From Elusimicrobiota bacterium (GTDB lineage Bacteria > CG03 > SLGR01 > JBDRKX01), in assembly GCA_043813605.1 (NCBI GenBank), contig JBDRKX010000069.1, positions 1 through 23,212 on the forward strand: DNA of 23,212 bases, in the 5' to 3' direction. Shown in pieces: positions 540-19,826 of the stretch. The position numbers and the translations under genes are program-made. How positions within the stretch are numbered: position 1 is the stretch's first letter; each line of letters starts with the position of its first letter. The notes under the pieces were generated by a model. That model was given only the letters and a program-made list of their open reading frames with translations. It searched no databases and had not been told where the DNA came from.

Positions 540-818
540 TCATCCCATTCTACACCATGCCAAGTTTCTTATTCTGATAATTACATCCGATGTCTTTTTG
601 CGCATATCAGCAATATACCGACAATCAATACAATCCGCATCGTTATTATCATGATCCGGACATCTACACAGCATATCCGCCGCCTTATGTAATTGTTCCG
701 TAAATTCCGCCTTCTCCAGTCCTGTTTCACCGGAATTGATTTTATCTGTAATATTTTTTATTACAGACTCCTGTTTTTGAAATATTAAACACCTTATTCT
801 TGCTCTATTTTCTCTCAT
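540..818 (-). CDS. Hypothetical Cys-rich small protein (92 aa), possible metal-binding
   Basis: ORF track. Contains a CRCPDHDNNDADCIDCRY cluster (CxC-x9-CxxC). Its start overlaps the stop of the upstream gvpJ/K fusion (shared position 818), suggesting translational coupling. No family recognised. Confidence 0.4.
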   Translation of the reverse strand: MRENRARIRCLIFQKQESVIKNITDKINSGETGLEKAEFTEQLHKAADMLCRCPDHDNNDADCIDCRYIADMRKKTSDVIIRIRNLAWCRMG

Positions 819-1351
819 TACATTAAATTTCCAAGAGGCCCCAGGTCTATATTCATGTCCTCATCGCTTATGCCGAAGACGGCCTGCACTTCCTGAAGCT
901 TTTTTTTGACAGCCTTGAGGCTCAAACCCAGCTTTTGAGTTTCGACGTCGGAAAGAGAGCCTCTTTTAACCCTTCTAAAAGCCTCCCTTTCCATTACCTT
1001 CCTTATAAGTTCGATCACGCACAATATCAGTTTGGCCAGCCCCTGTTCTGTCTCAGTGGGACTGTCAGCATTGATAAGTTTCGGTATATTTTCTTCGGCT
1101 CTCTTTATCTCGTATTGGAGTCTGTTTATATACTCGGCATCTTCCCTGCTGAGCTCTTCATTTTGAGGACTGAATCTTTTACCCGACAACTCTTCCGCTT
1201 TTGATATTGAAGTAAGAACAAGCCTGAGCCCCAGAAAAACCAGGTCGACGTCAGCTACCCTTATGGTCATTTCTCCGTTTATCACGGCCCCTTTATCAAT
1301 AACCGTATCCAGGGCGTCCGCCAGTGTTACATTATCGCTTCTTCTTGCCAT
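818..1351 (-). CDS. gvpJK: Gas vesicle protein, GvpJ/GvpA-like N-terminal domain fused to GvpK-like C-terminal domain
   Basis: N-terminus LADALDTVIDKGAVINGEMTIRVADVDLVFLGLRLVLTSISKAEEL matches the GvpA/J/M core. C-terminus LAKLILCVIELIRKVMEREAFRRVKRGSLSDVETQKLGLSLKAVKKKLQEV...DLGPLGNL matches the GvpK signature (LxLvLtvvELLRqLmErQAlRR ... LDLGPLG). Confidence 0.8.
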   Translation of the reverse strand: MARRSDNVTLADALDTVIDKGAVINGEMTIRVADVDLVFLGLRLVLTSISKAEELSGKRFSPQNEELSREDAEYINRLQYEIKRAEENIPKLINADSPTETEQGLAKLILCVIELIRKVMEREAFRRVKRGSLSDVETQKLGLSLKAVKKKLQEVQAVFGISDEDMNIDLGPLGNLM

Positions 1352-1360
1352 TTTCTTGTC

Positions 1361-2164
1361 CTATAAAAAGCTGTAAGCGGGCCACGGCCCGCTGTATTCA
1401 AGATAAAAACCTTTTTCTTTTACCTTGTTATTCAGAGTTTCAGCATAATCCTTGAAATGTCCTGTTTTTTCCGAATCAATCAGGTAGGCCGTATTCGATA
1501 TCATCGGTTCCGCTTTTCCCGTAAGCGCTTTATTAAGGACCTTATTTTCGGACGAATCCTCCGCCAGGCTGTTAAATCCTGCAAATATCTCTCCGGCAAT
1601 AAGACTTATTTCCTTATCCTTCTCACTTATCATATTATCCTTCAGTTCTTCTTCCATAAAAAAAGCCAGGCCTTCAGGTATTGGCTTCGATTCTTCGTCT
1701 TTTTTTTCTGATGTTCTATTTTTATCTATGATTATCTGTTCAAGTTTTTTTCCATCTCCGAGATACGCCTTCACGCTCCATTCCTGTCTGTTTCTGATCT
1801 TATCCAGAAATTTTCTGAATTCAGCATAGTCTTTTTTCAGGCATTTCTTTAGACTTATTTTCCCCTTGAAAACAGCGCCGAATCTCATCGGGATCAAATC
1901 TATGACGCCGCTCTCCGTTTTCATAACTTCTTCTATGACTCTTTCATGAGCGACAGCTTTTTCTTTTATCCATTGCAGGTCATCTTTAGCTTTCTTCTGA
2001 ATTTCTTCCATATTAAATATTCCCGGATCTATTCCGCTTACAATCGCCGCCAGATCTTTGTATATGATCTGATAAACTATGTTTTTCCCATCTATGCCTC
2101 TTATTTTCATATCGAGATCTATTCCGGTATTATCTCTTATGCAGTAAAGATATATATCGCTCAT
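1361..2164 (-). CDS. gvpL: Gas vesicle protein GvpL/GvpF family (paralogue 4)
   Basis: Motifs IYLYCI (YxYgI), AHERVIEEVM, PMRFGAVF and C-terminal EYSGPWPAYSF are typical of GvpF/L. Confidence 0.8.
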   Translation of the reverse strand: MSDIYLYCIRDNTGIDLDMKIRGIDGKNIVYQIIYKDLAAIVSGIDPGIFNMEEIQKKAKDDLQWIKEKAVAHERVIEEVMKTESGVIDLIPMRFGAVFKGKISLKKCLKKDYAEFRKFLDKIRNRQEWSVKAYLGDGKKLEQIIIDKNRTSEKKDEESKPIPEGLAFFMEEELKDNMISEKDKEISLIAGEIFAGFNSLAEDSSENKVLNKALTGKAEPMISNTAYLIDSEKTGHFKDYAETLNNKVKEKGFYLEYSGPWPAYSFL

Positions 2165-2565: not shown

Positions 2566-2730
2566 AAATTCCTCCTTTTTTTATTTAATTCCAGATTACT
2601 TTTCACTTTCTTTTCTTTTTCTGATTTCATCCAGCAGAACAAGGATTTCACTTTCCCGCGAGTTATATTCCTCTTCACTTATTTCATCAATTTCAAATCT
2701 CATTTGGAGCTCCATAAGTTCTTCTTTTAT
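2455..2730. repeat. About 150-bp tandem direct repeat covering the 3' half of gvpG and its truncated copy
   Basis: Near-identical strings at fixed 150-bp offset: tttctgatttcatc at 2468 and 2618; tattcctcttcac(c/t)tatttcatcaa at 2515 and 2665. Confidence 0.6.
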
Positions 2731-2835
2731 CTTTCCTTCATCAGTTGCTTCCTGCTCTGCCATATCATTGATCTTAGACCCGAGCCACATTACACCCTTT
2801 ACCGGAGCCAGCAGTATATCATCAATCAGAAACAT
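2596..2835 (-). CDS. gvpG: Gas vesicle protein GvpG
   Basis: N-terminus MFLIDDILLAPVKGVMWL matches the GvpG signature MFLvDDLLvrP. Acidic coiled C-terminus and 79 aa length are typical. Confidence 0.75.
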   Translation of the reverse strand: MFLIDDILLAPVKGVMWLGSKINDMAEQEATDEGKIKEELMELQMRFEIDEISEEEYNSRESEILVLLDEIRKRKESEK

Positions 2836-3754
2836 CCTGATATTCCTTTGTGTTTATAACTATGTTTATAAAATTAAACGGCGGCACGGTAGTTATGTAT
2901 TTGAATTTGATTTTATACCCGTATTCTTCATCAAGATCGTAGATCTTACGGTCAAATTCCTCTTCTATCTGCCTTTCAATGTAAAAGGCCGCATTAACGA
3001 TCATCCGGTCCCCGTAGGATTTATTCGCCCTGACATCCACCGCAAGAGGCGACAGCGTATCCATAATATTTTTTTCATGTTCCTCTTTTTCCTGTTCAAG
3101 CGCGGCTTCCACCAGTCTTCCTATCTCGACACACTGGTAGTAGTTTTTCCCCGGAGGCAGTTTCTCCGCTTTTATTTTCAATGCTTTTATCTCTTCATTT
3201 TTTTCCATTACCTCTTCATACACAATATCCATATCAAATAAGGCCCTGAGACCCAGTTCTTTCCTGTTTTCATTCTGCTCAAGGAGGTCTTTGAAATTAT
3301 CGTATGTCTTTTCCAGTATACGCATGATCTTATTTTCATCTTCAGCGATAGTATTGAATCTGACCGGGAGTACATTGTACTGTTTCATCACCTGTTCAAT
3401 CGCTCTTTCATGCGAAATAAGATTGTCCCTTGAAGTCGAATACTCTGATAAAGGCGAATCGCTTACAACAGCAGCGATGTCATTAAAACTGACAGTATAT
3501 ACGACATCTCTCCTGCCTCCGATTCCCAGCTGCCCGAAAGTTTCGGGTTTATCGGTCGGGATAATACAATATATATATTTTGCGTCCTTTACCCCGTTAG
3601 AAACGCCTCCAACTTCAATAGGGGGTACATCAACAATCTCAGACGGCGGTTTAACGCCGCCGCCTTCTTTCGCGCAAAGTGCGCCTGTTCTAACGGGGTT
3701 TACATCTGTTTCCATATCACATCTCCCACTCTTTAGGAGAAATTCTAAAATCAA
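2822..3754 (-). CDS. gvpL: Gas vesicle protein GvpF/GvpL family (paralogue 3) with N-terminal Gly/Pro-rich extension
   Basis: KYIYCII, SHERAIEQVM, LPVRFNT, NAAFYIER and C-terminal VPPFNF. The internal Met (METDV, start near 3715) would abut the upstream stop instead of overlapping it by 38 nt; the alternative start is plausible. Confidence 0.8.
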   Translation of the reverse strand: MILEFLLKSGRCDMETDVNPVRTGALCAKEGGGVKPPSEIVDVPPIEVGGVSNGVKDAKYIYCIIPTDKPETFGQLGIGGRRDVVYTVSFNDIAAVVSDSPLSEYSTSRDNLISHERAIEQVMKQYNVLPVRFNTIAEDENKIMRILEKTYDNFKDLLEQNENRKELGLRALFDMDIVYEEVMEKNEEIKALKIKAEKLPPGKNYYQCVEIGRLVEAALEQEKEEHEKNIMDTLSPLAVDVRANKSYGDRMIVNAAFYIERQIEEEFDRKIYDLDEEYGYKIKFKYITTVPPFNFINIVINTKEYQDVSD

Positions 3755-4484
3755 TAAAATTGAACACCGGCCAGGCTCCGGTATACATAAACTTTATATT
3801 TTTCTTATATTTCTCAGCTAACTCGTCCATTATGTTGTCAAATTCTTTTTCTCTGCCTTTATCTATAAGAAAAGCGGCATTCATAAACATCTCATCATTT
3901 CTAGTATCGTTTAGTTTGTAATCCAGAAAAGCTATTTTTAAGGCATCTAAGATTTCCCGGGCAGCCTCTGTTTTTTTCTCTTTCAGCGCGCTCTGGACCA
4001 TTTTTCCCGTCTCTATTTTTGCCTTTATGCTTTTGCCGGCGGCGTTCTCAAGGTTCTCCTTCAATTCCCTGATTTTATTATTCTCTTTAACTATTTCTTT
4101 ATACACGTTGCCCATGCTCTTCCACGTTCCGCTTACATTAAACTCTACCATGTGTTTGATATCCTTCAAAAGAGTTTTAAATTCATGGTATCTTCTGGAC
4201 AAAAGATCCCTTACCTCTTCTGCATTCGCAGCAATAGTACCAAACCGCACAGGAAGAACGCAGTCAAACTCCTTCATCACTTCTTCTATCACTCTTTCAT
4301 GCGCCAGCATATTCGCATTACTCGCAGAGATTTCTTCTGTCAGGAAATTGCTTACAACCACGCTCAAATCCATATATCCGATAGTTAAGACATCGTCTCC
4401 TCTCAGGCCTATACCGATAGGCCCGAAATTTCTTTCCTGCCGGGTCTCTATGATGCAGTAAATATATCTTCCTTCTTTAGTCAT
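3717..4484 (-). CDS. gvpF: Gas vesicle protein GvpF (paralogue 2)
   Basis: RYIYCII, AHERVIEEVM, LPVRFGTI, NAAFLIDK, GAWPVFNF. Canonical GvpF architecture and length (255 aa). Confidence 0.85.
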   Translation of the reverse strand: MTKEGRYIYCIIETRQERNFGPIGIGLRGDDVLTIGYMDLSVVVSNFLTEEISASNANMLAHERVIEEVMKEFDCVLPVRFGTIAANAEEVRDLLSRRYHEFKTLLKDIKHMVEFNVSGTWKSMGNVYKEIVKENNKIRELKENLENAAGKSIKAKIETGKMVQSALKEKKTEAAREILDALKIAFLDYKLNDTRNDEMFMNAAFLIDKGREKEFDNIMDELAEKYKKNIKFMYTGAWPVFNFIDFRISPKEWEM

Positions 4485-4485
4485 T

Positions 4486-5523
4486 TTATTCCATCACCTG
4501 CACCAGCAGGGCGCTTTTCTCAAAATCTTCTTTCCTGAAAGAACACCTTTCTTCCTGGCAATACTCCATAAGTACCTTGTAAGCATTCGCGGTATTGCCG
4601 AACTTATTCCCGCTGTCATCAGGATTTCTATCCGGATGGGTCAACAGAGCGGACTTCCGGTAGGCTTTTTTTATCTCATCCCTGTTCGAATAGTCCTGCA
4701 GCCCGAGCAGGTTTTTCGCGCTGCATATTTCTTCAAACGGCATCTTTTTTATTCCAAGCGTACAAAAATTGTAAGGCGGAAGAGGGCCCACGCATCTGAA
4801 ATTGACTTTATCGTTAAATTCCATGTCCAGCTTTTCGACAACGGAATCAAACTTCTCCTGCTGGTCCTTATCCACCGAACAGGCTATATTGATGATCATG
4901 CTCTCATCCATGACTTCATTTATCTTAAAACCCTGTACAATGTTTTCCAGCGTTTTCTGTATTTGACCGGCATATTTCCCTCTCTTTGTATTTAAAGCTT
5001 TCTTTACCATAAATCCCACCTGCATCTGATCTTCTATTGTTATTCCTTCAGGCTTGGATAAGAGAGTCTCTTTCAATGCCACGATCTCAGGTTCCCGGCT
5101 TGCTTCCTGCAGCGCTGAATTAAAATCGCTCCATACTGCGACTACATCGACTTCTACAATATTTTCTATCTTTCTGAAAACATCTTTGATTACGCCGTAT
5201 CCTTTTTCCAGCGCTTCGCTCACTTCGTCCTCGCCGCATACAATTGTCCCAATACTTACCGGCATGACAGGATAATACTTCATTATCTTCTCTACTATTA
5301 TCTGGTGACCGAGCAATATTTTGGCAAGAGATTCTTTGTTCATATTTCTGAGATCCGTGACTTCCGAATCACTGATTAAAGCTGATATATCCTGAAAACT
5401 TACAGCGCTGACCCTTTCCGCCTGCAGAATATTCATCATTTCTATCGACGGACTTCCGGTATTGATTATCCCGTAAATATATTTTCCCGTTACATTCAGC
5501 ATATCAGGCCTTCCTTTTTTCAT
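4486..5523 (-). CDS. GvpF/L-like protein with C-terminal J-domain (DnaJ-type, HPD motif)
   Basis: The first 270 aa carry GvpF/L motifs (KYIYGII, PVMPVSIGTI, GPLPPYNF). The C-terminus DYSNRDEIKKAYRKSALLTHPDRNPDD...KFGNTANAYKVL is a J-domain helix II-HPD-helix III. Confidence 0.8.
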   Translation of the reverse strand: MKKGRPDMLNVTGKYIYGIINTGSPSIEMMNILQAERVSAVSFQDISALISDSEVTDLRNMNKESLAKILLGHQIIVEKIMKYYPVMPVSIGTIVCGEDEVSEALEKGYGVIKDVFRKIENIVEVDVVAVWSDFNSALQEASREPEIVALKETLLSKPEGITIEDQMQVGFMVKKALNTKRGKYAGQIQKTLENIVQGFKINEVMDESMIINIACSVDKDQQEKFDSVVEKLDMEFNDKVNFRCVGPLPPYNFCTLGIKKMPFEEICSAKNLLGLQDYSNRDEIKKAYRKSALLTHPDRNPDDSGNKFGNTANAYKVLMEYCQEERCSFRKEDFEKSALLVQVME

Positions 5524-7657
5524 CGTTATTCTTCATTAACCTGATTGCTTCCAGAAAATGTCCTTTTTTAATAACCGGGTCTTTTTTGCTGTCAGGATTC
5601 TCTATGGCCTCCCTTATCGCAAGAATGGACGCCTTTCTGCAGATATATTCAATATCAGCGCCGGTTTTATTTTCCGTTTCTACGGCTAATTTTTTCAAAT
5701 CTATATCTTTTGCCATAGGTTTTTTACCGGTATGTATTCTGAAAATACTTTCTCTGGTTTTTTCATCGGGCGTCGGAAGTTTTAACAGAATGTCGAATCT
5801 GCCGCTTCTGAGTAAGGCCGGGTCGATAAGATCCAGCCTGTTTGTGGCGGCCAGGACAACCACGCCTTTAAGCTCTTCGATACCGTCCATCTCGGTGAGC
5901 ATCTGGCTGATCACCCGTTCCGCGACATGAGCCCCGTCCCCCGCAGATCCTTTTTTAGGGATCAAAGCGTCGATCTCGTCAAAAAACAGGATTGTTGGAG
6001 AGGCATGCCTGGCTATTTTAAACAGCTCGTGTATCGCCTTTTCGCTTTCCCCTATATATTTGGATATGAGCGACGGCCCTTTTACCGATATAAAGTTCAC
6101 CTTGCTCTCATTGGCCACCGCTTTGGCAAGTAGTGTCTTGCCCGTACCCGGTTCGCCGTAGAGCATAATGCCTTTCGGCGGGTTGGTGTCCATCTTTTTA
6201 AAAATATCCGGATATTTTATTGGCCACTCTACGGCCTCTTTCAGTTCCGCCTTCTCATTTTCCAGGCCTCCTATATCTTCCCATTTGACATCCGGCACTT
6301 CTATAAAATATTCCCGTACCGCCGAGGGTTCCACTTCTTTCATGGCCTCCATGAAATTATCCATGGTCACTTCCAGCTGAAGCAGTGTCTCATAAGGTAT
6401 ATCCGCCATCTCAAAATCTATTACAGGCAGGATCTTTCTCAGGGCTACCATGGCCGCTTCCCTTGCCAGAGCTTCCAGGTCAGCCCCGACAAATCCGTGC
6501 GTTATCTCCGCTATCTTCTGCATGCTCACATCTTCAGAAAGGGGCATTCCCCGGGTATGTATATGCAGGATATCGAGCCTTCCGTTCTTATCGGGTATAG
6601 GCACCGCTATTTCCCTGTCGAACCGCCCCGGCCTCCGGAGCGCCGGATCTATAGTATTGGGAATATTTGTGGCGCCTATTACTATTACATGGCCCCTGGA
6701 TTCCAGCCCGTCCATGAGCGACAGGAGTTGGGCGACGACCCTCCGTTCCACCTGTTTTTCTCCTCCCATGTCTTCTCTTTTTGGCGCTATTGCGTCTATT
6801 TCGTCTATAAATATTATCGCGGGCGCGTTTTTCTGGGCCTCTTCAAAAATACTCCTTAACCGGCCCTCGCTTTCGCCATAGAATTTCCCCATGATCTCCG
6901 GGCCGGATATGTGGGTGAAAAATGCGTCCGTCTCGTGGGCTACAGCCCGGGCTGTCAATGTCTTCCCTGTACCGGGAGGTCCGTATAGAAAAACTCCTTT
7001 TGGAGCTTCTACCCCTAACCGTTCGAATACTTCAGGATATTTCAGCGGGAGCTCTATCATCTCACGTATTCTCTGTACCTGAGGGCCCAATCCCCCTACA
7101 TCCTCGTACGATATTTTAATCGGGCCGGCTTTTTCCGACAGATTTGTCTTTACCTTTATCACGCTTGCGGAATCTACAATGACATTGCCGCAGGGACTTG
7201 TATCTGTTACCTTGAAATCACACCATCTCGATCCGAAGAGAGTAACTCTCACTCTGTCCCCGGCCGACACAGGTAAACCTTCAAGAAGGGAACCGATGTA
7301 TTTCGCGTCCTTATCCCTCTCAAGCAGGCTGGATACGGTTAAAGGTTCAATACTGATCTTTTGAGCCGGATTATATTCAGCTTTATGTACCTTTAGTTTC
7401 TCATCCAGCCCCACCCCTGCGTTATCTCTGGATATCCCGTCAATCTGAATGATCTTTTTTCCTCTATCTTCGCTATAAAGCGGCATTGCCTTTGCGGGAG
7501 TCTTTCTTTTTCCTTCTATCTCTATTATCTCTCCCACTTCTATATTGAGTAACTTCATATCTTCAGGGCCGATCCTGGCTATCGCCCTTCCTACGCTGTT
7601 CGGGAGAGCCTCCTGCACTTTTAAACTTATTGATTTATCTTTCTGTTTTGTATTCAT
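5504..7657 (-). CDS. Cdc48/VCP/VAT-like AAA+ ATPase (N-domain plus D1 and D2 AAA modules)
   Basis: Two Walker A sites, [17 protein letters not shown] and [17 protein letters not shown]. Two Walker B sites, [10 protein letters not shown] and [10 protein letters not shown]. Arginine fingers [13 protein letters not shown] and [10 protein letters not shown]. An N-terminal region of about 180 aa precedes D1. Confidence 0.9.
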
Positions 7658-8589
7658 GAAAATAACAGCTCCTTGAATCCCTTCAACACCTCTATGCCTT
7701 TCACCTCATTTGCCTGCAGCGGGACAATGGTTATTTTAAGCGTATTGAATTTTTCTTTTATCGCTTTTATATATTTCTCCTGGTCCTTTTTTTTAGCCTG
7801 GCAAAAATCGCATTTTCTGGATTCTAAAACATTATTTACTACTAACTGTTTTACATTTATGCCGTATTTATTAAGACTGTTTACCAATCTTTCAGTCTCT
7901 GAAATAGCCATATCTTCCGGTATGGTCACCGGTATAAACTCGCATTTCGAACTGTCTTTCAATATGCTTTCAACTTTTTTTACCGTCTTTTTCAGATCTA
8001 CAAGAAAATGATCGCCTTCATCGGGTTTATAATCTCCGGAAAGCCTTTTTACTATATATCTATACTTCCATCTCATTTGAGCCATTACTTTGATCCAGTC
8101 ATCTAACAGTCCCGGCAGGGTAAGCAGCCTTAAGGCATGCCCGGTGGGTGCGGTATCAACAATATATTTATCGTATCCCGATTTTTCTATTAAATCTACT
8201 ATTGTTTTAAATCCCATAACTTCGTCTAATCCGGGGATAGACAATGCGAACAGGGACTCGATATCTTCATCATCCATATAAGTCGAAGTTCCCAGGATCG
8301 TCTTTATCTCATTCTCATGCTCAATTTTAAATTCTTCAAAGGTCTCTTCTGCGCTTATTTCAAGGCCGCTTAAATGCTCGAAAGTTTTAATCTTTATTAT
8401 TGAATTCCCGATCTTCTGCCCTATACTGTCTGCCAGAGAATGGGCCGGGTCTGTAGATATCATTAAAGTATTATACACTTCCGATAAGTAAATTCCGGCA
8501 CCTGAAGCGCAGGTTGTTTTGCCTACTCCGCCTTTCCCGCCGAACAGAATCAGCTTTAACGAATCTTGTCTTAATCCGGATAAGCTCAC
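7654..8589 (-). CDS. ArsA/Get3-family ATPase
   Basis: Deviant Walker A LFGGKGGVGKTTCAS, ISTDPAHSLADS, switch II VDTAPTGHALRLL, and a CDFC (CxxC) motif near the C-terminus of the type Get3 uses for Zn-mediated dimerisation. The 4-nt ATGA-type overlap with the downstream Cdc48-like gene suggests translational coupling. Confidence 0.8.
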   Translation of the reverse strand: MSLSGLRQDSLKLILFGGKGGVGKTTCASGAGIYLSEVYNTLMISTDPAHSLADSIGQKIGNSIIKIKTFEHLSGLEISAEETFEEFKIEHENEIKTILGTSTYMDDEDIESLFALSIPGLDEVMGFKTIVDLIEKSGYDKYIVDTAPTGHALRLLTLPGLLDDWIKVMAQMRWKYRYIVKRLSGDYKPDEGDHFLVDLKKTVKKVESILKDSSKCEFIPVTIPEDMAISETERLVNSLNKYGINVKQLVVNNVLESRKCDFCQAKKKDQEKYIKAIKEKFNTLKITIVPLQANEVKGIEVLKGFKELLFS

Positions 8590-9145: not shown

Positions 9146-9460
9146 TTAATAACTTATAGCCATTCTTTTAATAGATCTGGCGGACTTGTTCTCTACAGTT
9201 TTAATTTCAGTTTCACTTTGTACTTCTTTTTGTAAACTCTCCAGACGCCCGTTGATACTGTCTATTTTTTTTATCAGACTTGCTTTTCTTTTTTCCATTG
9301 ACTCAAACTCCTTTTTAAGCCTGCCCTGTTCCAATATAAGAGAATACATCTCCAGGCACGAGGTCCTCTGCATCTTTGGAATTGAACGAAGCCCTGTGCC
9401 GCGCAGGCTCTTTATGTCTGTGAGGCCCGGCAACTGCTCTAATCTCTTTATGTTATGCAT
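9146..9460 (-). CDS. Hypothetical coiled-coil protein (104 aa) in gvp operon
   Basis: ORF track. Predicted coiled coil (LKKEFESMEKRKASLIKKIDSINGRLESLQKEVQ). Its start overlaps the gvpN stop by 13 nt. No family recognised. Confidence 0.4.
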   Translation of the reverse strand: MHNIKRLEQLPGLTDIKSLRGTGLRSIPKMQRTSCLEMYSLILEQGRLKKEFESMEKRKASLIKKIDSINGRLESLQKEVQSETEIKTVENKSARSIKRMAISY

Positions 9461-10386
9461 CGTGCTACACGCTCCTTTTGATTTTTCTCAACCAGCTCCC
9501 TGATTATCTCTTTGACTCTATCCTGGTTGGATCTCGAACCTACTCTGCTGGTTTCTGATGCAAGGATGTCCTGGCATATCTGTTTAAACTCCCCGTTTGA
9601 TTTTATTGGAGAGAGGTTCCGCATTTTAAGGGTCTTGGCAATCATAATGCATCCGCGTATAGTAGGAGAAAATTCGCATTTTCCGGAATCCCTTAAACCT
9701 CTTGCGATATTGACTATTATTTCCGCATGCTTTTTTGACATGTTTGATTTCGACCTGGTTATAGCTACCTCTGTCTCATAATCAAAGTGTTCCAAATCTA
9801 AGGTCACCATTCTATCCCTCAATGCATCCTGGCTTCTGTGAACACCTGCGTATTCTTCCGGATTACTGGTAAATATAGCCTTAAAATCTGCGTTAACTTT
9901 CAGGTATGGGCTGTCTCCTCTTGATTCAGGTAAGTCCATTATCCTTTCCTGCAGAATGGAAAGGAGTATGTTATTTGCTTCGGGCCGGGAACGGGTAAAC
10001 TCGTCGTAAATAAGTGTGTAACCGTATTTACACGCAACTGTAAGACGGTTATCTACCCATTTTTTCACCATATCCTCTTCTGTCTTTAATACCCGGGATA
10101 TGAATCTGTCAACAACTTTTTTTATCCTGTAACCATACTCGCCGCCAACAAGACTGGATGTTGTAAACTCTTCATCACCGTGTATCATAACAACGGGCCT
10201 GCCTAGCTTGCTGGCAATATGCATAGCCAGAGTTGTCTTACCGGTTCCCGACGGGCCCCTCAAATGAACCGGAAAACCCGAATTAATATAGGAAATTGCT
10301 CTACCGGTAATATTCTGAACATATTTTGTGTTCACAAAATCCGGCATAGGTGTCGGGTCAATTACTGTACTTGTATCATCAATCAT
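9448..10386 (-). CDS. gvpN: Gas vesicle protein GvpN (MoxR/CbbQ-like AAA+ ATPase)
   Basis: FPVHLRGPSGTGKTTLAMHIASKLGRPVVMIHGDEE (Walker A plus GvpN-specific flank), Walker B TLIYDEFTRSRPE, length 312 aa. Confidence 0.9.
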   Translation of the reverse strand: MIDDTSTVIDPTPMPDFVNTKYVQNITGRAISYINSGFPVHLRGPSGTGKTTLAMHIASKLGRPVVMIHGDEEFTTSSLVGGEYGYRIKKVVDRFISRVLKTEEDMVKKWVDNRLTVACKYGYTLIYDEFTRSRPEANNILLSILQERIMDLPESRGDSPYLKVNADFKAIFTSNPEEYAGVHRSQDALRDRMVTLDLEHFDYETEVAITRSKSNMSKKHAEIIVNIARGLRDSGKCEFSPTIRGCIMIAKTLKMRNLSPIKSNGEFKQICQDILASETSRVGSRSNQDRVKEIIRELVEKNQKERVARCIT

Positions 10387-10404
10387 ATCGCTTCTCCCTT
10401 TAGT

Positions 10405-10560
10405 TTATCTTCTGCATGCAAACCAAACCTGTTTCTTGTTGCCTGCTTTTACTGCGTTTTCTGTCCCATTACAAACCGGACAGGCTCCTGTAGTATGAAC
10501 CAGATTTAAAGGCGCTGCCTTGCCTGTTCCTTTACAAAACGAATATCTATCTGCATCCAT
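10405..10560 (-). CDS. Small zinc-ribbon-like ORF (51 aa), unannotated in the track
   Basis: Own translation: MDADRYSFCKGTGKAAPLNLVHTTGACPVCNGTENAVKAGNKKQVWFACRR, i.e. C-x17-CxxC-x18-C including a CxxCxGxx motif. RBS GAGGAAA lies 6 nt upstream. Sits between the repeat-protein gene and gvpN. Confidence 0.35.
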   Translation of the reverse strand: MDADRYSFCKGTGKAAPLNLVHTTGACPVCNGTENAVKAGNKKQVWFACRR

Positions 10561-10605
10561 CTTATTTTCCTCTACCTTTACCTTTTTCTCCGTTTTTATT
10601 CTTGT

Positions 10606-10983
10606 TCATGACATTTTTTTTGCACCTTTAGCAGACCTATTCCCATCTGCTCCCATCCTTTTATTTCTTAAAGTCTCAGCCATCAGGTTCCAGATTTGCC
10701 TACTTTCGGCCAAATCTTCTTTTACTTCCTCTTCCTTTCTTCTGAAATCCTCTTTTAAAGTGTTGACACTATTAACCAGGTCTTCTCTTGTTTCCTGTAA
10801 GCCAATCTTCAACTCATTACTCATCCTCTGGTGCATTCTTTTAGACTCGATTAAGAACTTCCTTGCCTTATCTCTTATAGCTTTCGCATCCTTTTTGAGG
10901 TTTTTAATGCCCCTTCTTCTATCTTCGTAACTCATTACAATGTCTTCACTAAGAGACTCCATCCCTGTTGACACTTTACCCAT
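10606..10983 (-). CDS. Alpha-helical repeat protein, paralogue C of a three-member family (candidate GvpC-like)
   Basis: N-terminal motif SEDIVMSYEDRRRGIKNL shared with the ORFs at 11332-12135 (TEDIVGSFNERVKAIGDL) and 12152-12733 (LKNVLTSYDEGVHSIGSI). Internal FLIESKRMHQRMSNEL resembles the FxxEHKxMSxEL repeats of paralogue B. Confidence 0.5.
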   Translation of the reverse strand: MGKVSTGMESLSEDIVMSYEDRRRGIKNLKKDAKAIRDKARKFLIESKRMHQRMSNELKIGLQETREDLVNSVNTLKEDFRRKEEEVKEDLAESRQIWNLMAETLRNKRMGADGNRSAKGAKKMS

Positions 10984-11331: not shown

Positions 11332-12135
11332 CTACCTTTTATGTACTGCACAGAATTTAGAACCCTTAACAGATTTTCCCTTACAGTTTTTCCCGGACTT
11401 CGTAGTGCCAGCACATTTACTTACTCCCCTGCCCTTTTTAACAGTTTTGCTGATCTCTGATGTCTTTTTTCCGGCATCAATCTTAGGCACTACACCTTCC
11501 TTCCTGGCTTTGTTCAATACTGAAGACATTCCCTGCCAGGCTTCCTTTGCTTTTTTCATATCCAAATCACATTCACCCAGGAACCCTTTAACATCACTGA
11601 CAATACCGCCAACATATTTACCTAAACTCTTTCTCAATGCATCACTCATATCAGAATGTTCTTCATTAAACTCCTTTAACTTCTGTGAAACATCGCATTC
11701 GATATTTTTAATGCTTTCATTGATACTCCCCATCATATCTTTAAAGTCTTTTAACCTATCAACTTCGCCTTTTGCTAAGCCTTTTTTAAGAAAATCCGCC
11801 ATCTCCTTATGCTCTTTCTGAAAACTTTTGATCATATTCCCTACTTCATCGGTCATATTCCCAACAAAATTTCCTAAGTCTTTTGTCAGTTCAATACTCA
11901 TCTGTTTATGTTCTGTCTGGAATTCTTTCAGAAAATTTTGTACGTTCTTTGACAATCCATCTACAAATGCAGCCAAATCATCTGCCTGTTCCTTACTCAT
12001 CTTTTTTCTGTCCAACTTGAACTTTTTCAAAGTTTCTTGGGTATCAACAGTTAAATCACCAATTGCCTTTACCCGCTCATTAAAGGACCCAACAATGTCT
12101 TCTGTAACCTTTTTCATTTCATTTGCAACAACCAT
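11332..12135 (-). CDS. Alpha-helical protein with exact 33-residue repeats (candidate GvpC analogue), paralogue B; C-terminal Lys/Cys/His tail
   Basis: Phe39/Phe72/Phe105 anchor three repeats at exact 33-aa spacing: KFKLDRKKMSKEQADDL, EFQTEHKQMSIELTKDL and SFQKEHKEMADFLKKGL. A looser fourth copy is EFNEEHSDMSDALRKSL. The tail reads KCAGTTKSGKNCKGKSVKGSKFCAVHKR. It lies second after gvpA, near where gvpC usually sits. Confidence 0.55.
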   Translation of the reverse strand: MVVANEMKKVTEDIVGSFNERVKAIGDLTVDTQETLKKFKLDRKKMSKEQADDLAAFVDGLSKNVQNFLKEFQTEHKQMSIELTKDLGNFVGNMTDEVGNMIKSFQKEHKEMADFLKKGLAKGEVDRLKDFKDMMGSINESIKNIECDVSQKLKEFNEEHSDMSDALRKSLGKYVGGIVSDVKGFLGECDLDMKKAKEAWQGMSSVLNKARKEGVVPKIDAGKKTSEISKTVKKGRGVSKCAGTTKSGKNCKGKSVKGSKFCAVHKR

Positions 12136-12151: not shown

Positions 12152-12733
12152 TTACTTACTTTTACTATACTTCCCCAGCATCACTTTAAAATCATTTATC
12201 TTTAGGACTTTCCCCTTGGAAAGAAGCTCTCCGAGGTCATCTGCCAATGCCTTTTGTATGTTTTGAAATTCGATAAGCTTTTCTGAAATCTCTTTTTTGC
12301 TCTTTTCCTGATCGCTGATCGCTTCTCTATTAACTTCATATAACTCCCGGGACTGTATCTTCTTACCACTAATTAGAGAAACCTTAATAAGTTCCATATT
12401 TTTCCTTAACTTATATGCCGCTTCTTTCTGCTCATTAAGGTATCTCTTAAATAACCTCCTGATTTCTTCCATGGTTTGGTCCTGCACAGAAATTATTTCT
12501 TTCATCATATTGTCAAAATCTTTTTTCCGCAGATGTTCATTTATAGAAAGATTGTTTTTTAGTTCCTCACTTATTTTCTGCCTTTCCTTATCTGCGCCAA
12601 GTATGGATTCCTGGAAACTTCCGATGATCAGATGGGCATCATCAAATATTGACCCTATACTGTGAACACCTTCATCATAAGAAGTCAAAACATTTTTTAG
12701 AATTTTACTTGCATTTACTGTTGTGTTAGTCAT
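12152..12733 (-). CDS. Alpha-helical repeat protein, paralogue A (candidate GvpC-like), immediately downstream of gvpA
   Basis: Shares the N-terminal motif and a repeat-like segment LIEFQNIQKALADDL with paralogues B and C. RBS AAGAAGGA precedes the ATG. Confidence 0.5.
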   Translation of the reverse strand: MTNTTVNASKILKNVLTSYDEGVHSIGSIFDDAHLIIGSFQESILGADKERQKISEELKNNLSINEHLRKKDFDNMMKEIISVQDQTMEEIRRLFKRYLNEQKEAAYKLRKNMELIKVSLISGKKIQSRELYEVNREAISDQEKSKKEISEKLIEFQNIQKALADDLGELLSKGKVLKINDFKVMLGKYSKSK

Positions 12734-12851: not shown

Positions 12852-13058
12852 TTACGCTGCTGTTGCGGTCAAGCCTATTGCTTCAGCATATTTCAGGTAA
12901 GTTTCTACTGATGCAACTACAACACGCGCTTCGATAGCAAGCAGCTCGATTCCCACTAATGAGAATCTCACCCATGCGTCAATCACGACCCCCTTGTCCA
13001 GTATCCGGTCGACAACATCGACAAGACTGGAAGAACCAATTGCTTTTTCCATTGCCAT
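12852..13058 (-). CDS. gvpA: Gas vesicle major structural protein GvpA
   Basis: [63 protein letters not shown] is the near-invariant GvpA core. AGGAGG RBS (plus strand cctcct 13067-13072) lies 8 nt upstream. Confidence 0.95.
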
Positions 13059-13235: not shown

Positions 13236-13263
13236 ATTATACCTATAATATATTATTTGTCAA
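13236..13263 (-). promoter_or_regulatory. Consensus sigma70-type promoter for gvpA (TTGACA-N16-TATAAT)
   Basis: Minus strand reads cTTGACAaataatatattataggTATAATagg. The -35 element is at 13263-13258 and the -10 element at 13241-13236. Predicted TSS is near 13229, giving a 5' UTR of about 170 nt. Confidence 0.5.
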
Positions 13264-13289: not shown

Positions 13290-15494
13290 TCAAGAAAGGT
13301 TATTGACACATTCTATGAATTTCTTCAAATTAAACGGTTTTGACATGTATTCATCCGCGCCGCATCTGAATATCCGTTCTTTAGTGCCGGGCATATCATA
13401 ACCGGTTATAGCCAGGATCTTCATACCCTTGTTATCAGGGTCATTGTGTATTGATTCGCACAACTGAAAACCATTGATCCCCGGCAGCTTCAGATCCAGG
13501 ATAACCAGATCCGGCCTCAAGGCCTTCACTTGTTTAAGAGCGTCTAATCCATCACCGGTTGACGCAATTTCATAATCATATTTTGATTTCTTCAGCAGCA
13601 GCCTTGTTATGATGTTTATTATGTTATTTTCATCATCTACTATCAGCACCTTTTTCTTCTTCTTTTTTTCTTCTAAATCCGAAACGCTCTTCTTATATTC
13701 ACGGGACTTCGATATACGGCGTTCATTCCATGGATACAATTCCGATATCCTTACATTATTCAATACTATTCCCATGATTGAGGCATGTACTTTTTCAAGC
13801 TGGTCTTTAGCCTTTTTCAAAAGAGCCCCTGAAGATATCACATTATGATGGACCAGGATAACTGCATCAACCTTAGTAGACAGGATAACAGGTTCTGCTG
13901 AAAGGAGCAGCGCCGAAGAGTCAAATATGATCAATTCATATTCTTTCCTGGCCTGCTCTATAAATTGATCCATCTTCCGGGAATTCAGCATATTAGCCGG
14001 ATTCTCTTCTTTTCCGCATGTTATTATTTTTAAATTTTCTTTGTTATCCAAGCTAAATGCATTTTCCCCGTATTTTTCAGGAATATCTTTCACCGCGTTC
14101 TTCCAATCCATCTTACCCATGATTATTTCACTTAAACCGCCGCCCGGCGGAAGACCGAATATCTGCCGGATCAAAGATTCACCCTTACCGGCATCAATAA
14201 ACAGCGTTTTTATCCCGGCGGCAGCGCTCGCTATCGCATAATTAACTGCAATCAGCGTTTTCTCTTCTTCAAGGCAGACACCGGTGAATAATAAGACTCC
14301 CGCATTCTTCTCCGGCAGCGTAAATTTAATATTCATCCATAAAGTAAAATATGCTTCGGTAACAGATGCTTTTGCAGAATAATTAAAGAGCAGCCTGTTT
14401 CTGAGACTTTCTATCTTACAAGATGCATTTGAACGTTTAAAAAAATTGAAATCGGACTTAGCTGTTTTTTTGTCCTTTATCTGAGGGATGACTCCAAGAA
14501 CGGGGATATTTATGTCATTCTCCATTTTTTCTATGTCCCGCAAAAAGACCTCATTTGTACCTGTTTTTAACGTTAATATAAACCCGAATATGACCCCGAA
14601 AATTCCACCGAACAACAGTTTCACAGGCAGATCCGGTTTTAACGGTTGAACGGGGATAACAGCGGGGGAGATCACCTGCATACTGGCGAGATTATCAAAA
14701 TCTTCAAACATAGCTTCTCGATATTTCTCTTTCAGCTGTTCACGGAATTCTTCATCCGCTTCGATCTTTTTCAATATAAGGTCTTTTTGAACAGCCTTAT
14801 CCAGTTCCTTTTCTACTTCTTCGATCTGATCCTGTATTTCGATAACAGCCGGGTGCTTATAATTAAACTTCCTACGCAGCTTTATCTGATCGAGCTTAAG
14901 TCCGCTTAAGTCTGTTTTAAGCTCATTTGCATTATTAATGAATCCGCGCTTTTCTGTTAAGTCATCTATCTGGCTCCTTTTCTGTTCTATAAGTGCCCCT
15001 ATATCATCTAGCTGTTCCTCATACCGGCTTTTTACTTTCTGCCCTTTTTTAATTTTCTGATCCTCGGTTTTTTCTATATATATCTTAACCATGTTGTTAA
15101 CAATTCCTGCTGCTCCTTCGGCGCTGTCGAGCCTGGCAGTAAGTTGAATAATATTGGTGCCTTTTACCCGTTCTGCTGAAACATGTTTCTGTAAATAATC
15201 GATCTTCATGTTTTTATCATCAAAGGCAATACCCGGATACAGGATTCCCGTATATTCTGCCGCTTTATATATAACTGAATAACTTTTTATTTTTTTGCAT
15301 TCAGTCGCGATCAATTCACTAACTGCCATACCGTACTGGTTTTCCATAATTTTGTCTCTTTCTGAATGCAATTTTATTTCAAGTAAAGCGCTGCTTTCAA
15401 AAACCGGTTTCTGTACAAAGCTGACAACTATTGCGGTAACTATGCCGATAATAACGCTATAGATTATCTTTTTCATGTTTCTGTTAATAATCAT
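13290..15494 (-). CDS. Wzc/PCP-2-like polysaccharide co-polymerase with degenerate BY-kinase P-loop and C-terminal receiver (REC) domain
   Basis: N-terminal TM plus Wzz-like region, coiled coil, second TM LLFGGIFGVIFGFILTL. The kinase-like domain has its Walker A position as FTGVCLEEEKT instead of GEGKS/T, with Walker A' LFIDAG and Walker B LIIFDSS. C-terminus: KKVLIVDDENNIINIITRLL...DLVILDLKLPGINGF...KPF, a CheY-like REC. Confidence 0.75.
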   Translation of the reverse strand: MIINRNMKKIIYSVIIGIVTAIVVSFVQKPVFESSALLEIKLHSERDKIMENQYGMAVSELIATECKKIKSYSVIYKAAEYTGILYPGIAFDDKNMKIDYLQKHVSAERVKGTNIIQLTARLDSAEGAAGIVNNMVKIYIEKTEDQKIKKGQKVKSRYEEQLDDIGALIEQKRSQIDDLTEKRGFINNANELKTDLSGLKLDQIKLRRKFNYKHPAVIEIQDQIEEVEKELDKAVQKDLILKKIEADEEFREQLKEKYREAMFEDFDNLASMQVISPAVIPVQPLKPDLPVKLLFGGIFGVIFGFILTLKTGTNEVFLRDIEKMENDINIPVLGVIPQIKDKKTAKSDFNFFKRSNASCKIESLRNRLLFNYSAKASVTEAYFTLWMNIKFTLPEKNAGVLLFTGVCLEEEKTLIAVNYAIASAAAGIKTLFIDAGKGESLIRQIFGLPPGGGLSEIIMGKMDWKNAVKDIPEKYGENAFSLDNKENLKIITCGKEENPANMLNSRKMDQFIEQARKEYELIIFDSSALLLSAEPVILSTKVDAVILVHHNVISSGALLKKAKDQLEKVHASIMGIVLNNVRISELYPWNERRISKSREYKKSVSDLEEKKKKKKVLIVDDENNIINIITRLLLKKSKYDYEIASTGDGLDALKQVKALRPDLVILDLKLPGINGFQLCESIHNDPDNKGMKILAITGYDMPGTKERIFRCGADEYMSKPFNLKKFIECVNNLS

Positions 15495-15506
15495 TGACTG
15501 CCTTCT

Positions 15507-15956
15507 TTATCCGTCAATTATACTCCCATGTTTTTGATCCTTTATTTTTAACGCTTCCCTGACCTTGTCATAAAGGTGTGCAAGCGTAAACGGTTTGGGC
15601 AGATAAAAATCAACGCCTGATGAAAAGCCCTCTTCCACTTCACCTACTCTGCTTTTTACTGTCAGCATGATAATCGGTATATGCCTGTGTTTAACGATAT
15701 CGCTTCTTTTCAATTTCCATGCTACTTCTAAACCGTTCATAGCGGGCATCTCATTGTCCAGGATGATAAGGTCCGGATGCTCTTTTTTTACTTTTTCAAG
15801 AGCTTCGAGTCCCTCTGCAGCAGTTATGATCCTGTAATCACATTCAAATATGCGTTTTAATATATTTCTTATGTATTCTTCATCATCTACTATGAGAATA
15901 GTATTTTTTTTCATTTTATTATTTTCTTTCGTACATGTTTTTAAGGATCCTGGCAT
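15507..15956 (-). CDS. Single-domain response regulator (CheY-like receiver)
   Basis: NTILIVDDEEYIRNILKRIFE...DLIILDNEMPAMNGLEV...YLPKPF. The true start is more likely the internal Met (MKKNTILIVDD, ATG at 15914), which abuts the upstream stop, than the track start at 15956, which overlaps it. Confidence 0.8.
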   Translation of the reverse strand: MPGSLKTCTKENNKMKKNTILIVDDEEYIRNILKRIFECDYRIITAAEGLEALEKVKKEHPDLIILDNEMPAMNGLEVAWKLKRSDIVKHRHIPIIMLTVKSRVGEVEEGFSSGVDFYLPKPFTLAHLYDKVREALKIKDQKHGSIIDG

Positions 15957-17364
15957 TCTTCAGCCTTTCCCGGGCCTTATTGTTTGACGGAGCGTCTTTT
16001 ATTACTTTTTCGTAAGCGCTGATTGCCTCATCGTAATTCTCAAAGCCCATCATCGTTTCTCCAATGTAAAAATATAGTTGTGCATCGGTAGGATCAAAGC
16101 CTGAATTATTTTCTTTATCCATGTTCAATTCAAGCGCAGTTTTAAAACAATTATATGCAGTTTCTATTACTCCCTCTTTTAACAGCAGAACGCCATTATC
16201 ATAAAGTTGTTTTCTTCTAACAGCTATTCTGTTATTCTTTGACGGTTCTCGTGTTATTTTTAACTTTTTGTTTACAGGGACCTGTATCGTTTTTTCTTCT
16301 TCTACGGCTTTCGCCGCGATATTCATTACACGCGGGATCTCAACAACACCTGTGCCTGTTTTACCGGCCTTACTGATATGTATGTTTTTTATACCTATAA
16401 TCATGATGACCAGCAGCCCGGCAAAAACAAAAACCAATCTACTCCGGTAAAATAGTGATTTATTGTTATATACCGAACCGTTTTCACCGGTGATACGCAG
16501 ACAGTAACTTTTTTTCCGGTAGATAAATTCTACTTTTTTCATTATTATACGCCGGAGAGAGATATCCATTCTGAATATTTTCCAGCCCTTATCAGCTGCC
16601 GGATCATTGATCCGGTCATATATTTTTTCAATATAACTTTTAATATAATCCGGCTTGATCGCATCCAGAACCATACTATCCGGATTTTTTAATCTGTTAT
16701 ATACAGTGCCCCTGAATATATTATCACCATCAATTTTTGTTATATCTTTATCTTTTAGCTTAAGCGGTGACAATATACCCTTAAAACACTGCGGTGAATA
16801 CACAGTTCTATAGCATTCGTACGTAACTGTTTTTCCTGTGCCTTCACAGGCAGGACAATGCCGGGTTCTTCTCCGTATTTTTTTTATCTTTCCCGAACAT
16901 ACCCTGCAATTCATGATCCTTTCAGATCCGGGAACTATTTTTTCTGATTCTTTTCCTTCCTCAAAACCGCGGGGAGGAGCTCTGTACGGCAATACATGCA
17001 ATGATACCGGGACGTATTCAGCCGATACATCTTCTCCCCTGTATACACGCATTCCGCTATTCAGTGACCTTTTGACAAATAGAACACTGATTTCAAACAG
17101 ATAATTCTGTTCCGATATAACCTTATTTATACTGCTTTGCTCTCCGGGATCAAAGCGGGATATCCTTTTTTTCCCGGCCCAGAACGCCAGATTTTTCCGG
17201 ATACCGGATATGTCTTTAGCAGAAATATTTTTGTTTACTATATACTCTTTCTTATTTAAAAATTCTTTCCTGGTAATTTCTATTCCTGTCTTGATCTTTT
17301 TGCGTATTTCCTTGTCAAAAATAATATTATCGTAAGAGCGGGATATAATCCGGTCTTTCTTCAT
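15919..17364 (-). CDS. Membrane-anchored protein with zinc-ribbon (CxxCxG...CxxCxGxG) and C-terminal TPR repeats
   Basis: CRVCSGKIKKIRRRTRHCPACEGTGKT; TM LVFVFAGLLVIMIIGI; TPR-like AYNCFKTALELN...YDEAISAYEKVIKDAP. Confidence 0.55.
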   Translation of the reverse strand: MKKDRIISRSYDNIIFDKEIRKKIKTGIEITRKEFLNKKEYIVNKNISAKDISGIRKNLAFWAGKKRISRFDPGEQSSINKVISEQNYLFEISVLFVKRSLNSGMRVYRGEDVSAEYVPVSLHVLPYRAPPRGFEEGKESEKIVPGSERIMNCRVCSGKIKKIRRRTRHCPACEGTGKTVTYECYRTVYSPQCFKGILSPLKLKDKDITKIDGDNIFRGTVYNRLKNPDSMVLDAIKPDYIKSYIEKIYDRINDPAADKGWKIFRMDISLRRIIMKKVEFIYRKKSYCLRITGENGSVYNNKSLFYRSRLVFVFAGLLVIMIIGIKNIHISKAGKTGTGVVEIPRVMNIAAKAVEEEKTIQVPVNKKLKITREPSKNNRIAVRRKQLYDNGVLLLKEGVIETAYNCFKTALELNMDKENNSGFDPTDAQLYFYIGETMMGFENYDEAISAYEKVIKDAPSNNKARERLKNARILKNMYERK

Positions 17365-17374
17365 GTTATTTATG

Positions 17375-19132: not shown

Positions 19133-19205
19133 AAGATTTCCTTTAAGGGCTTCATCCTGCTTCTTTTCAATGCCTCCTGAATCATATTTAATTTTGAATA
19201 TTTAA

Positions 19206-19802: not shown

Positions 19803-19826
19803 CCTACATCTCCTTAATCTTTCTCT

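Follow-up and report, generated by a model that had tools for sequence, protein, structure and literature searches.

The stretch of DNA analysed here (the window, 23,212 nt) is contig JBDRKX010000069.1 of assembly GCA_043813605.1, a metagenome-assembled genome (MAG) of an Elusimicrobiota bacterium. It carries a gas-vesicle cluster in which gvpA, gvpN, gvpG, gvpJ-K and four gvpF/L genes all lie on the same strand, as is also the case in related loci. One of the gvpF/L genes, which we call GvpF-J, encodes a GvpF/L protein that continues in frame into a true J-domain, the HPD tripeptide of which is invariant. This architecture had been proposed in a preliminary description of the same DNA, and profile search, alignment and structure model agree on it. 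The features of the gene, with residues numbered in amino acids (aa), are:

4486..5523, minus strand: GvpF-J open reading frame (ORF) including the stop codon, 345 aa, or 338 aa if the start is M8
4756..5487, minus strand: GvpL/GvpF domain, aa 13-256 (Pfam PF06386, PDB and Foldseek matches)
4561..4737, minus strand: J-domain, aa 263-321 (helix I 263-272, helix II 281-295, HPD loop, helix III 306-321)
4630..4638, minus strand: HPD codons CAT CCG GAT (H296, P297, D298), read from the sequence and invariant in homologs
4489..4560, minus strand: conserved extension after helix III, aa 322-345, consensus YC..CSF.EEEFKKNAILVKVRE, predicted strand-helix-strand

A GvpF/L body with a C-terminal J-domain

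The ORF at 4486-5523, for which no strand had been given, is real and lies on the minus strand. Its product is a 100% match to a GenBank protein (P0001, 'MAG: GvpL/GvpF family gas vesicle protein [Elusimicrobiota bacterium]'), the contig of which is the window itself. The first ATG of the ORF is at 5523 and an alternative ATG, that of M8, is at 5502-5500. The real start is probably M8, since it lies 1 nt past the stop codon of the upstream CDC48 gene (5506-5504), is preceded by a GGAAGG Shine-Dalgarno motif with a 6-nt spacer and agrees with the N-termini of the homologs, and since aa 1-8 are the sole low-confidence stretch of the AlphaFold2 model.

The N-terminal part of GvpF-J matches Pfam GvpL_GvpF (PF06386) from aa 13 to 254, covering profile positions 1-244 of 245 (E=2.3e-50, 172 bits against a cutoff of 23.6). 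In the PDB, the sequence of this part matched the two solved GvpFs, 4qsg (E=9e-11) and 6l5d, and a Foldseek search with the model led to the same structures (6l5d_B, E=8e-13, template modelling (TM) score normalised to the target 0.76; 4qsg, E=5e-12). The identity to these solved GvpFs is 19-21%, at TM scores of 0.73-0.76 and Foldseek E-values of about 1e-12. Like these proteins, from Microcystis aeruginosa (4qsg) and Anabaena PCC 7120 (6l5d), GvpF-J belongs to PF06386 and has the two-lobed fold. Its gene stands in a gvp operon, beside gvpG and more GvpF/L paralogs, as do the genes of the accessory GvpF and GvpL proteins in Halobacterium and Bacillus megaterium. The GvpF/L motifs quoted in the preliminary description were all found (KYIYGII at aa 14-20, PVSIGTI at 88-94 and GPLPPYNF at 246-253). 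GvpF-J reaches no curated NCBIfam equivalog, scoring 74 bits with GvpF NF052351 (cutoff 350) and 51 bits with GvpL NF045778 (cutoff 200), and these scores place it somewhat closer to GvpF than to GvpL. By sequence comparison, GvpF-J is a PF06386 member of a separate orthogroup and not an orthologue of a characterised GvpF or GvpL.

Unlike canonical GvpFs, which end at the PPY.F motif, GvpF-J adds a C-terminal J-domain plus extension of about 90 residues. There is no linker between the two parts: the last residues of the canonical GvpF fold are PPY.F..L (aa ~256), and helix I of the J-domain begins at aa 263, about 7 residues later. Pfam DnaJ (PF00226) matches aa 272-320 with 44.7 bits, above the gathering cutoff of 27.8 (E=1.5e-11; profile positions 5-55 of 63), and the segment that had first been read as a J-domain, KKAYRKSALLTHPDRNPDD, is found at aa 285-303. 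A PDB sequence search with the C-terminal part retrieved about 30 solved J-domains, the best being DNAJA1 (2lo1, E=1.8e-8), with E. coli DnaJ (1xbl/5nro) at E=6e-4. The AlphaFold2 model, built from a 50-sequence alignment, has a mean predicted local distance difference test score (pLDDT) of 91.5 and a predicted TM score (pTM) of 0.79. In Foldseek, its C-terminal domain matches more than 15 solved J-domains with a probability of 1.00, and it superposes with a root-mean-square deviation of 1.1 Å over 52 residues on both 5nro_B, the DnaK-bound E. coli DnaJ, and 2dn9. Such agreement lies far beyond chance. HPD falls between the predicted helices 281-295 and 306-321, in the canonical helix II-loop-helix III setting. 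The preliminary description had named in advance the observations that would speak against it, namely no profile match, an HPD in a non-helical context or a frameshift; all three were looked for, and none was found.

The J-domain is 39% identical to residues 9-59 of E. coli DnaJ. In the pairwise alignment, R22, K23, Y25, K26 and R27 of DnaJ correspond to K285, K286, Y288, R289 and K290 of GvpF-J, and H33-P34-D35, R36, N37 and F47 correspond to HPD, R299, N300 and F308. We take the DnaJ residues R22, K23, Y25, K26, R27, R36, N37 and F47 to be those that contact DnaK in the 5NRO complex. Most of their counterparts are conserved among 120 homologous proteins (K285 in 111, K286 in 109, K/R299 in 116, N300 in 112 and F308 in 118). 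As in the J-domains of E. coli DnaJ (1xbl/5nro_B) and human DNAJA1 (2lo1), the fold has three helices, helix II is basic and HPD separates it from helix III. Unlike in DnaJ, the J-domain of GvpF-J is C-terminal and not N-terminal, and a YC..CSF.EEEFKKNAILVKV extension stands where helix IV would be. The bacterial DnaJ model TIGR02349 gives 38 bits against a cutoff of 377, with the J-domain segment alone matching, and a Pfam profile search of the protein gave no match to DnaJ_C or DnaJ_CXXCXGXG. By its domain content, GvpF-J is not a DnaJ but a class-C J-protein, as it lacks in cis the G/F region, the zinc finger and the client-binding domains at the C-terminus.

Conservation of the fusion and of its extended J-domain

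The coupling of the J-domain to one GvpF orthogroup was examined with the GvpF body alone (aa 8-256) as the query, which is a cleaner test than a set of 83 related genomic loci, as these were retrieved with patterns that took in a stretch of the J-domain. In the body-only search, all 113 matches down to E=1.4e-43 (at least 35% identity) carry PF00226; after a sharp gap, J-less GvpF/L proteins follow at E-values of 2.5e-29 and above and at most 34% identity. When the ORFs of the 83 loci were classed by their body alone, a J-domain was present in 77/77 complete ORFs of the GvpF-J orthogroup and in only one of the 191 ORFs of the three other paralog classes, that one being a divergent GvpF-J. The best 120 homolog clusters (42-51% identity) all combine PF06386 with PF00226, and HPD is invariant in 120/120 proteins and in 81/81 genomic loci. 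Averaged over pairs, sequence identity reaches 0.61 in the GvpF body and 0.60 in the J-domain, compared with 0.54 in the tail, so that the J-domain is under the same constraint as the GvpF body.

These results also bear on whether a frameshift or a chimeric contig might have joined a GvpF gene to a separate J-protein gene, an explanation to which we attach virtually no probability. The reading frame runs through without a break and all close homologs share the architecture, the fusion recurring in at least 113 independent protein clusters and in 124 species genomes from many studies; in addition, there is no linker and the two-domain model has the pTM given above. As the body-only search and the census of the loci show the fusion throughout the orthogroup, this artefact was rejected.

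When species-representative genomes were scanned, relatives turned up in 124 of them, spread over at least 15 mostly candidate phyla; all 80 of them that were listed are MAGs or single-amplified genomes. The taxa include Planctomycetota (many Pirellulales, and Phycisphaerae), Omnitrophota, Nitrospirota, Nitrospinota, Elusimicrobiota, Ignavibacteria/Bacteroidota, Latescibacterota, Cloacimonadota, Atribacterota, Desantisbacteria, Saganbacteria, Patescibacteria, Sumerlaeota, Aminicenantales, Chrysiogenales and others. As far as sampled, the orthogroup is confined to uncultured lineages, and the fusion is fixed in a gas-vesicle cluster that is widespread among uncultured bacteria but unstudied. 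The architecture had been put forward as new for the family, and this holds for the literature, as no paper describing the fusion was found: full-text searches gave none that links GvpF/GvpL with a J-domain or gas vesicles with DnaK/DnaJ function, the mentions of DnaK/DnaJ in PMC2270826 and PMC12848028 being unrelated to gas-vesicle assembly. It does not hold for public databases, where the fusion is already present, fixed in a large orthogroup of at least 113 clusters at 90% identity with automatic names such as 'GvpL/GvpF family', 'J domain-containing protein' and 'DnaJ-domain-containing protein 1'. In summary, GvpF-J is real, conserved and uncharacterised, a variant of known families whose members are already in databases under generic names.

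The extension after helix III has a mean pairwise identity of 54% within the family, and the front part of its motif (YC..Y..SF..E[ED]) recurs in standalone small J-proteins. A search with the J-domain plus tail gave 2338 matches at E<=1e-3 and 22 at E<=1e-10, chiefly proteins of about 330-370 aa with the module at their C-terminus, and also standalone J-proteins of 87-110 aa with YC..Y..SF..E[ED]. Judged by this extension motif, which is partly common to the fusion and to the standalone proteins, the J-domain of GvpF-J belongs to a distinct extended J subtype. The last hydrophobic strand (NAILVKV) appears from the sequences to be specific to the fusion, and we infer that it clamps the J-domain onto the GvpF body.

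In the standalone proteins (P0157, P0177, P0185, P0187, P0199, P0200 and others, and in the loci L085 and L086), the extension reads AY..L..YC..Y..SF..E[ED]. P0199 is a genuine standalone J-protein gene with an in-frame stop upstream, P0133 has two copies in tandem, and one standalone gene adjoins a DsbA-like gene. The contexts of the standalone 90-110 aa J-proteins that were checked gave no gvp link, being uninformative or unrelated to gvp. One candidate for a separate J-gene within a gvp cluster, P0193, was rejected: the open frame runs from ...INFRIIGPLPPYNF into it at a contig edge and, because the upstream frame is open, P0193 is the 3′ end of a GvpF-J cut by that edge.

The gas-vesicle operon around GvpF-J

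What matters most beyond the protein itself is the operon context, which the preliminary description overlooked and which includes a CDC48-family ATPase, an Hsp20, a Get3/ArsA ATPase and a zinc-finger protein. On the single strand of the operon, the order is gvpA, two to three coiled-coil proteins, the zinc-finger protein, gvpN, Hsp20, Get3/ArsA, CDC48 and GvpF-J, followed by two J-less GvpF/L paralogs, GvpG, a further GvpF/L paralog and a GvpJ-GvpK fusion. The order recurs in Omnitrophota, Desantisbacteria and other loci. Over at least 15 phyla, Hsp20, CDC48 and GvpN stay syntenic with GvpF-J, joined usually or frequently by ArsA and often by the zinc-finger protein. The features are, from gvpA downstream (L001-L003 being related loci):

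13236..13263, minus strand: sigma-70 promoter TTGACA-16-TATAAT about 180 nt upstream of gvpA, with 12/12 consensus matches (a consensus match only)
12852..13058, minus strand: gvpA, the major shell protein, first gene of the operon and presumed client; 88-93% identical in L001-L003
10987..11331, minus strand: 114-aa protein made up entirely of six CXXCXGXG repeats of the DnaJ zinc-finger type (Pfam DnaJ_CXXCXGXG, 40.5 bits against a cutoff of 32.7)
9448..10386, minus strand: GvpN-type AAA+ ATPase (AAA_5), 76-77% identical in L001-L003
8596..9126, minus strand: Hsp20/alpha-crystallin small heat-shock protein (Pfam HSP20; NCBIfam NF041800, 141 bits against a cutoff of 140), conserved in related loci
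7654..8589, minus strand: Get3/ArsA-family ATPase (Pfam ArsA_ATPase, E=5e-81; NCBIfam GET3_arsA_TRC40, 266 bits against a cutoff of 135)
5504..7657, minus strand: CDC48-family double-ring AAA+ ATPase (Pfam CDC48_N, CDC48_2 and two AAA; TIGR01243, 922 bits against a cutoff of 803)
3717..4484, minus strand: J-less GvpF/L paralog directly downstream of GvpF-J, its start 1 nt past the GvpF-J stop
2822..3754, minus strand: J-less GvpF/L paralog (Pfam)
2596..2835, minus strand: GvpG (Pfam)
1361..2164, minus strand: J-less GvpF/L paralog, more GvpL-like (Pfam, NCBIfam)
818..1351, minus strand: fusion of a GvpJ-like (GvpA-family) protein and GvpK, 177 aa; fused also in L002 and L003, separate genes in L001

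A CDC48 gene on the same strand lies upstream of GvpF-J in 53 of the 55 loci with enough sequence and is directly adjacent in 49 of them, with gaps of -30 to +389 nt. It is present in the operon besides GvpN, and we found no description of a role for CDC48 in gas vesicles in the literature. Homologs of the zinc-finger protein were detected in 36/83 related loci, with two copies in L001 and L003; the operon thus has two DnaJ modules on separate proteins, the J-domain on GvpF and the zinc-finger repeats on the 114-aa protein. A 51-aa ORF (10405-10560, minus strand) resembles the first ~33 residues of the zinc-finger protein and may be a remnant copy of it. Clusters with ArsA and Hsp20 beside several GvpF/L genes have been described in Pelodictyon, Polaribacter and Geobacter uraniireducens (Castillo & Saier 2010, PMC2963123). 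Unlike for the clusters analysed here, that paper mentions no J-domain or CDC48 (0 occurrences of 'DnaJ'), and its gvp-linked ArsA homologues are only two-domain proteins of about 600 aa, compared with the single-domain ArsA of 311 aa in the window. In L002, a two-domain form is found at a different position.

Three related coiled-coil proteins without a Pfam family are encoded just downstream of gvpA (11332-12135, 12152-12733 and 10606-10983, all minus strand). The one of 267 aa has internal repeats at offsets of 33, 51 and 84 residues with the motif F..EH..M..L.K.L, and its 33-residue period is reminiscent of GvpC, the protein that stiffens the outer surface and that this cluster otherwise lacks. 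Small ORFs without a Pfam match recur at the same positions in related clusters (2166-2432, 540-818 and 9146-9460, minus strand); an 88-aa ORF is the positional counterpart of genes called GvpO in L002 and L003, and a cysteine-rich ORF of 92 aa and an ORF of 104 aa are conserved in L001-L003. No sigma-54 site above chance was found upstream of gvpA in the window, although L001-L003 have sigma-54 activators upstream of gvpA. Upstream of the operon, a polysaccharide/capsule block (13290-23155, minus strand) contains unusual fusions to receiver (REC) domains, namely a Wzz/GNVR chain-length protein (734 aa) and a Polysacc_synt_2 dehydratase (765 aa), each with a C-terminal REC, and further a single-domain REC, a four-repeat PEGA protein, a TPR protein and a DegT aminotransferase. 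The gene for the actin-like 'Volactin' (PF25216, E=2.5e-96 at L078, 152-1201) is absent from the window and lies within the gvp clusters of 8 loci (L078, L030, L041, L046, L054, L059, L061 and L068), beside GvpF-J or between GvpF paralogs; Volactin may be a cytoskeletal element that positions vesicles.

Possible roles of GvpF-J and its probable Hsp70 partner

J-domains bind Hsp70 in its ATP state at the interface of the nucleotide-binding domain and the linker via HPD and helix II, triggering hydrolysis, and in class-C J-proteins a second domain brings Hsp70 to one client or place. The nearest functional analogues are TopJ, HscB and auxilin, which act in terminal-organelle assembly, on the Fe-S scaffold IscU and on clathrin coats, respectively. 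Like these class-C proteins, GvpF-J combines a J-domain with a targeting module of the kind that directs a general Hsp70, and models of the Mycoplasma terminal-organelle protein TopJ are among its weak NCBIfam J-domain matches; unlike in these proteins, with which there is no homology beyond the J-domain, the targeting module is a GvpF/L domain. From sequence and model together, we think it likely that GvpF-J is a gas-vesicle-specific class-C (type III) J-protein that couples the binding of GvpA-family proteins to the DnaK cycle. The GvpF domain would be the module that binds the client or the site, that is, the hydrophobic GvpA-family shell proteins or the growing vesicle, and the rigidly attached J-domain would use its HPD loop and basic helix II to dock the ATP-bound DnaK/Hsp70 of the cell. 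The docking would trigger ATP hydrolysis by Hsp70, which would then clamp, or let go of, the shell protein at the site where GvpF holds it, so that aggregation-prone GvpA may stay soluble and be passed on for insertion. Partners in this process are probably the Hsp20 holdase, the CDC48-type unfoldase, usually Get3/ArsA and often the DnaJ-type zinc-finger protein. The conserved J-domain on a GvpF suggests that an Hsp70 machine takes part in building gas vesicles.

The preliminary description had GvpF at the inner, gas-facing surface of the vesicle, a placement that is contested, as recent interaction work sees it as a transient cytosolic chaperone of GvpA (PMC11445434). Experiments on the clusters of Halobacterium and B. 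megaterium identify GvpF as the protein that primarily, and transiently, binds GvpA at its hydrophobic part, and a chaperone-like role has been proposed for it (PMC11445434). A permanent gas-facing site is less likely for GvpF-J, because its hydrophilic, charged J-domain must reach cytosolic Hsp70.

The putative recruitment of an Hsp70 encoded elsewhere, as proposed at the outset, fits the Hsp70-free window and related loci; one dnaK-type gene was found, in a cluster at L078. L078 is a variant cluster with GvpF-J (PF00226, 50.2 bits), two ArsA genes, Hsp20 and GvpO, and without CDC48. Its dnaK-type gene lies at the cluster end (10190-10921) and runs off the contig; it is co-oriented with the preceding gvp gene, which it abuts or overlaps, and its product matches PF00012 (E=2e-105) and Geobacillus DnaK (2v7y, E=3e-98). 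The same MAG, JAZDOR01, holds three GvpF-J loci (L017, L028 and L078). Several points weigh against GvpF-J as an Hsp70-coupled J-protein. Scans with PROSITE-type motifs and tblastn over 1.1 Mb found no Hsp70 in the window or in 82/83 related loci, the single Hsp70-linked cluster is an anecdote, and for the MAG studied here the partner is assumed to be a housekeeping DnaK encoded elsewhere. Furthermore, the cluster has four GvpF/L paralogs, GvpF-J falls under the NCBIfam equivalog cutoffs of both GvpF and GvpL, and GvpA binding is known only for the distant GvpFs of Halobacterium and B. megaterium (PMC11445434). Finally, the window protein strays from the family consensus in its J-domain, with S268 in place of W and a post-HPD loop that is 2 residues shorter.

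The main rival is that the J-domain serves disassembly or quality control, with GvpF-J marking collapsed vesicles or GvpA aggregates, and we consider it rather unlikely. By analogy with the triad of small heat-shock protein (sHsp), Hsp70-J and ClpB, Hsp70 would be recruited there, the shell protein would go from it to the neighbouring unfoldase of the CDC48 type, and Hsp20 would co-aggregate; this would permit the recycling of GvpA or a regulated loss of buoyancy. Consistent with this are the position of CDC48 directly upstream in most loci, with stop and start codons overlapping or near-touching, the presence of Hsp20 in the same operon, the score of CDC48 above the family cutoff of an unfoldase-type ATPase and the fact that GvpN already supplies the usual gas-vesicle AAA+, which makes CDC48 an extra activity. 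However, the cluster at L078 has GvpF-J and DnaK without CDC48, which argues for a J-domain function independent of CDC48, and no hand-off from Hsp70 to CDC48 is known in bacteria, nor does CDC48 have the ClpB-type M-domain that couples ClpB to Hsp70. The AAA+ of the operon is of the CDC48 family and not ClpB, so the likeness to the ClpB-type bi-chaperone system is one of logic only (sHsp, J-protein and double-ring unfoldase). Gene order cannot tell assembly from disassembly, and the sequence cannot decide between delivery and insertion on the one hand and extraction with CDC48 for recycling on the other.

It is more doubtful still that the J-domain works independently of Hsp70, as a structural, oligomerisation or docking module, for example for the CDC48 N-domain or another Gvp, and has kept its J-like sequence on structural grounds. 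The lack of an Hsp70 gene in nearly all clusters, the conserved non-canonical extension after helix III and the very tight adjacency to CDC48 would fit such a role. Against this, HPD is invariant over at least 15 phyla at ~45% overall identity, conservation extends to R/K299, N300, F308 and the basic residues of helix II, and the cluster at L078 encodes a DnaK-type Hsp70; J-like domains that lost their Hsp70 function typically lose HPD, and we know of no J-domain that activates a CDC48-type ATPase. A broader form of the Hsp70-coupled J-protein reading, which we regard as unlikely but worth stating, is that the cluster is a self-contained, organelle-specific proteostasis machine that inserts GvpA into the shell and is also able to extract it. 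Such a machine would comprise the Hsp20 holdase, Get3/ArsA as the carrier of hydrophobic segments, the zinc-finger protein, the GvpF-tethered J-domain and a translationally coupled CDC48. If true, vesicle growth would be driven by Hsp70, and collapsed or unwanted vesicles could be actively dismantled and recycled; to our knowledge, no gas-vesicle system has been shown to do so in that way.

The heterologous expression of gas vesicles for ultrasound reporters is limited by proteotoxic stress (PMC12848028), and a cluster that supplies a J-protein, an sHsp, an unfoldase and a Get3-like ATPase of its own points to accessory parts that might be of use in such engineered systems. Gas-vesicle assembly and the role of the essential GvpF/L proteins are long-standing questions. 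A canonical J-domain kept on one GvpF orthogroup over at least 15 phyla provides 'Rosetta-stone' evidence for GvpF as a cytosolic chaperone-type adaptor, and not a gas-facing structural part, and for an involvement of Hsp70 in the handling of shell proteins. With GvpF-J, the chaperone hypothesis for GvpF (PMC11445434) becomes directly testable.

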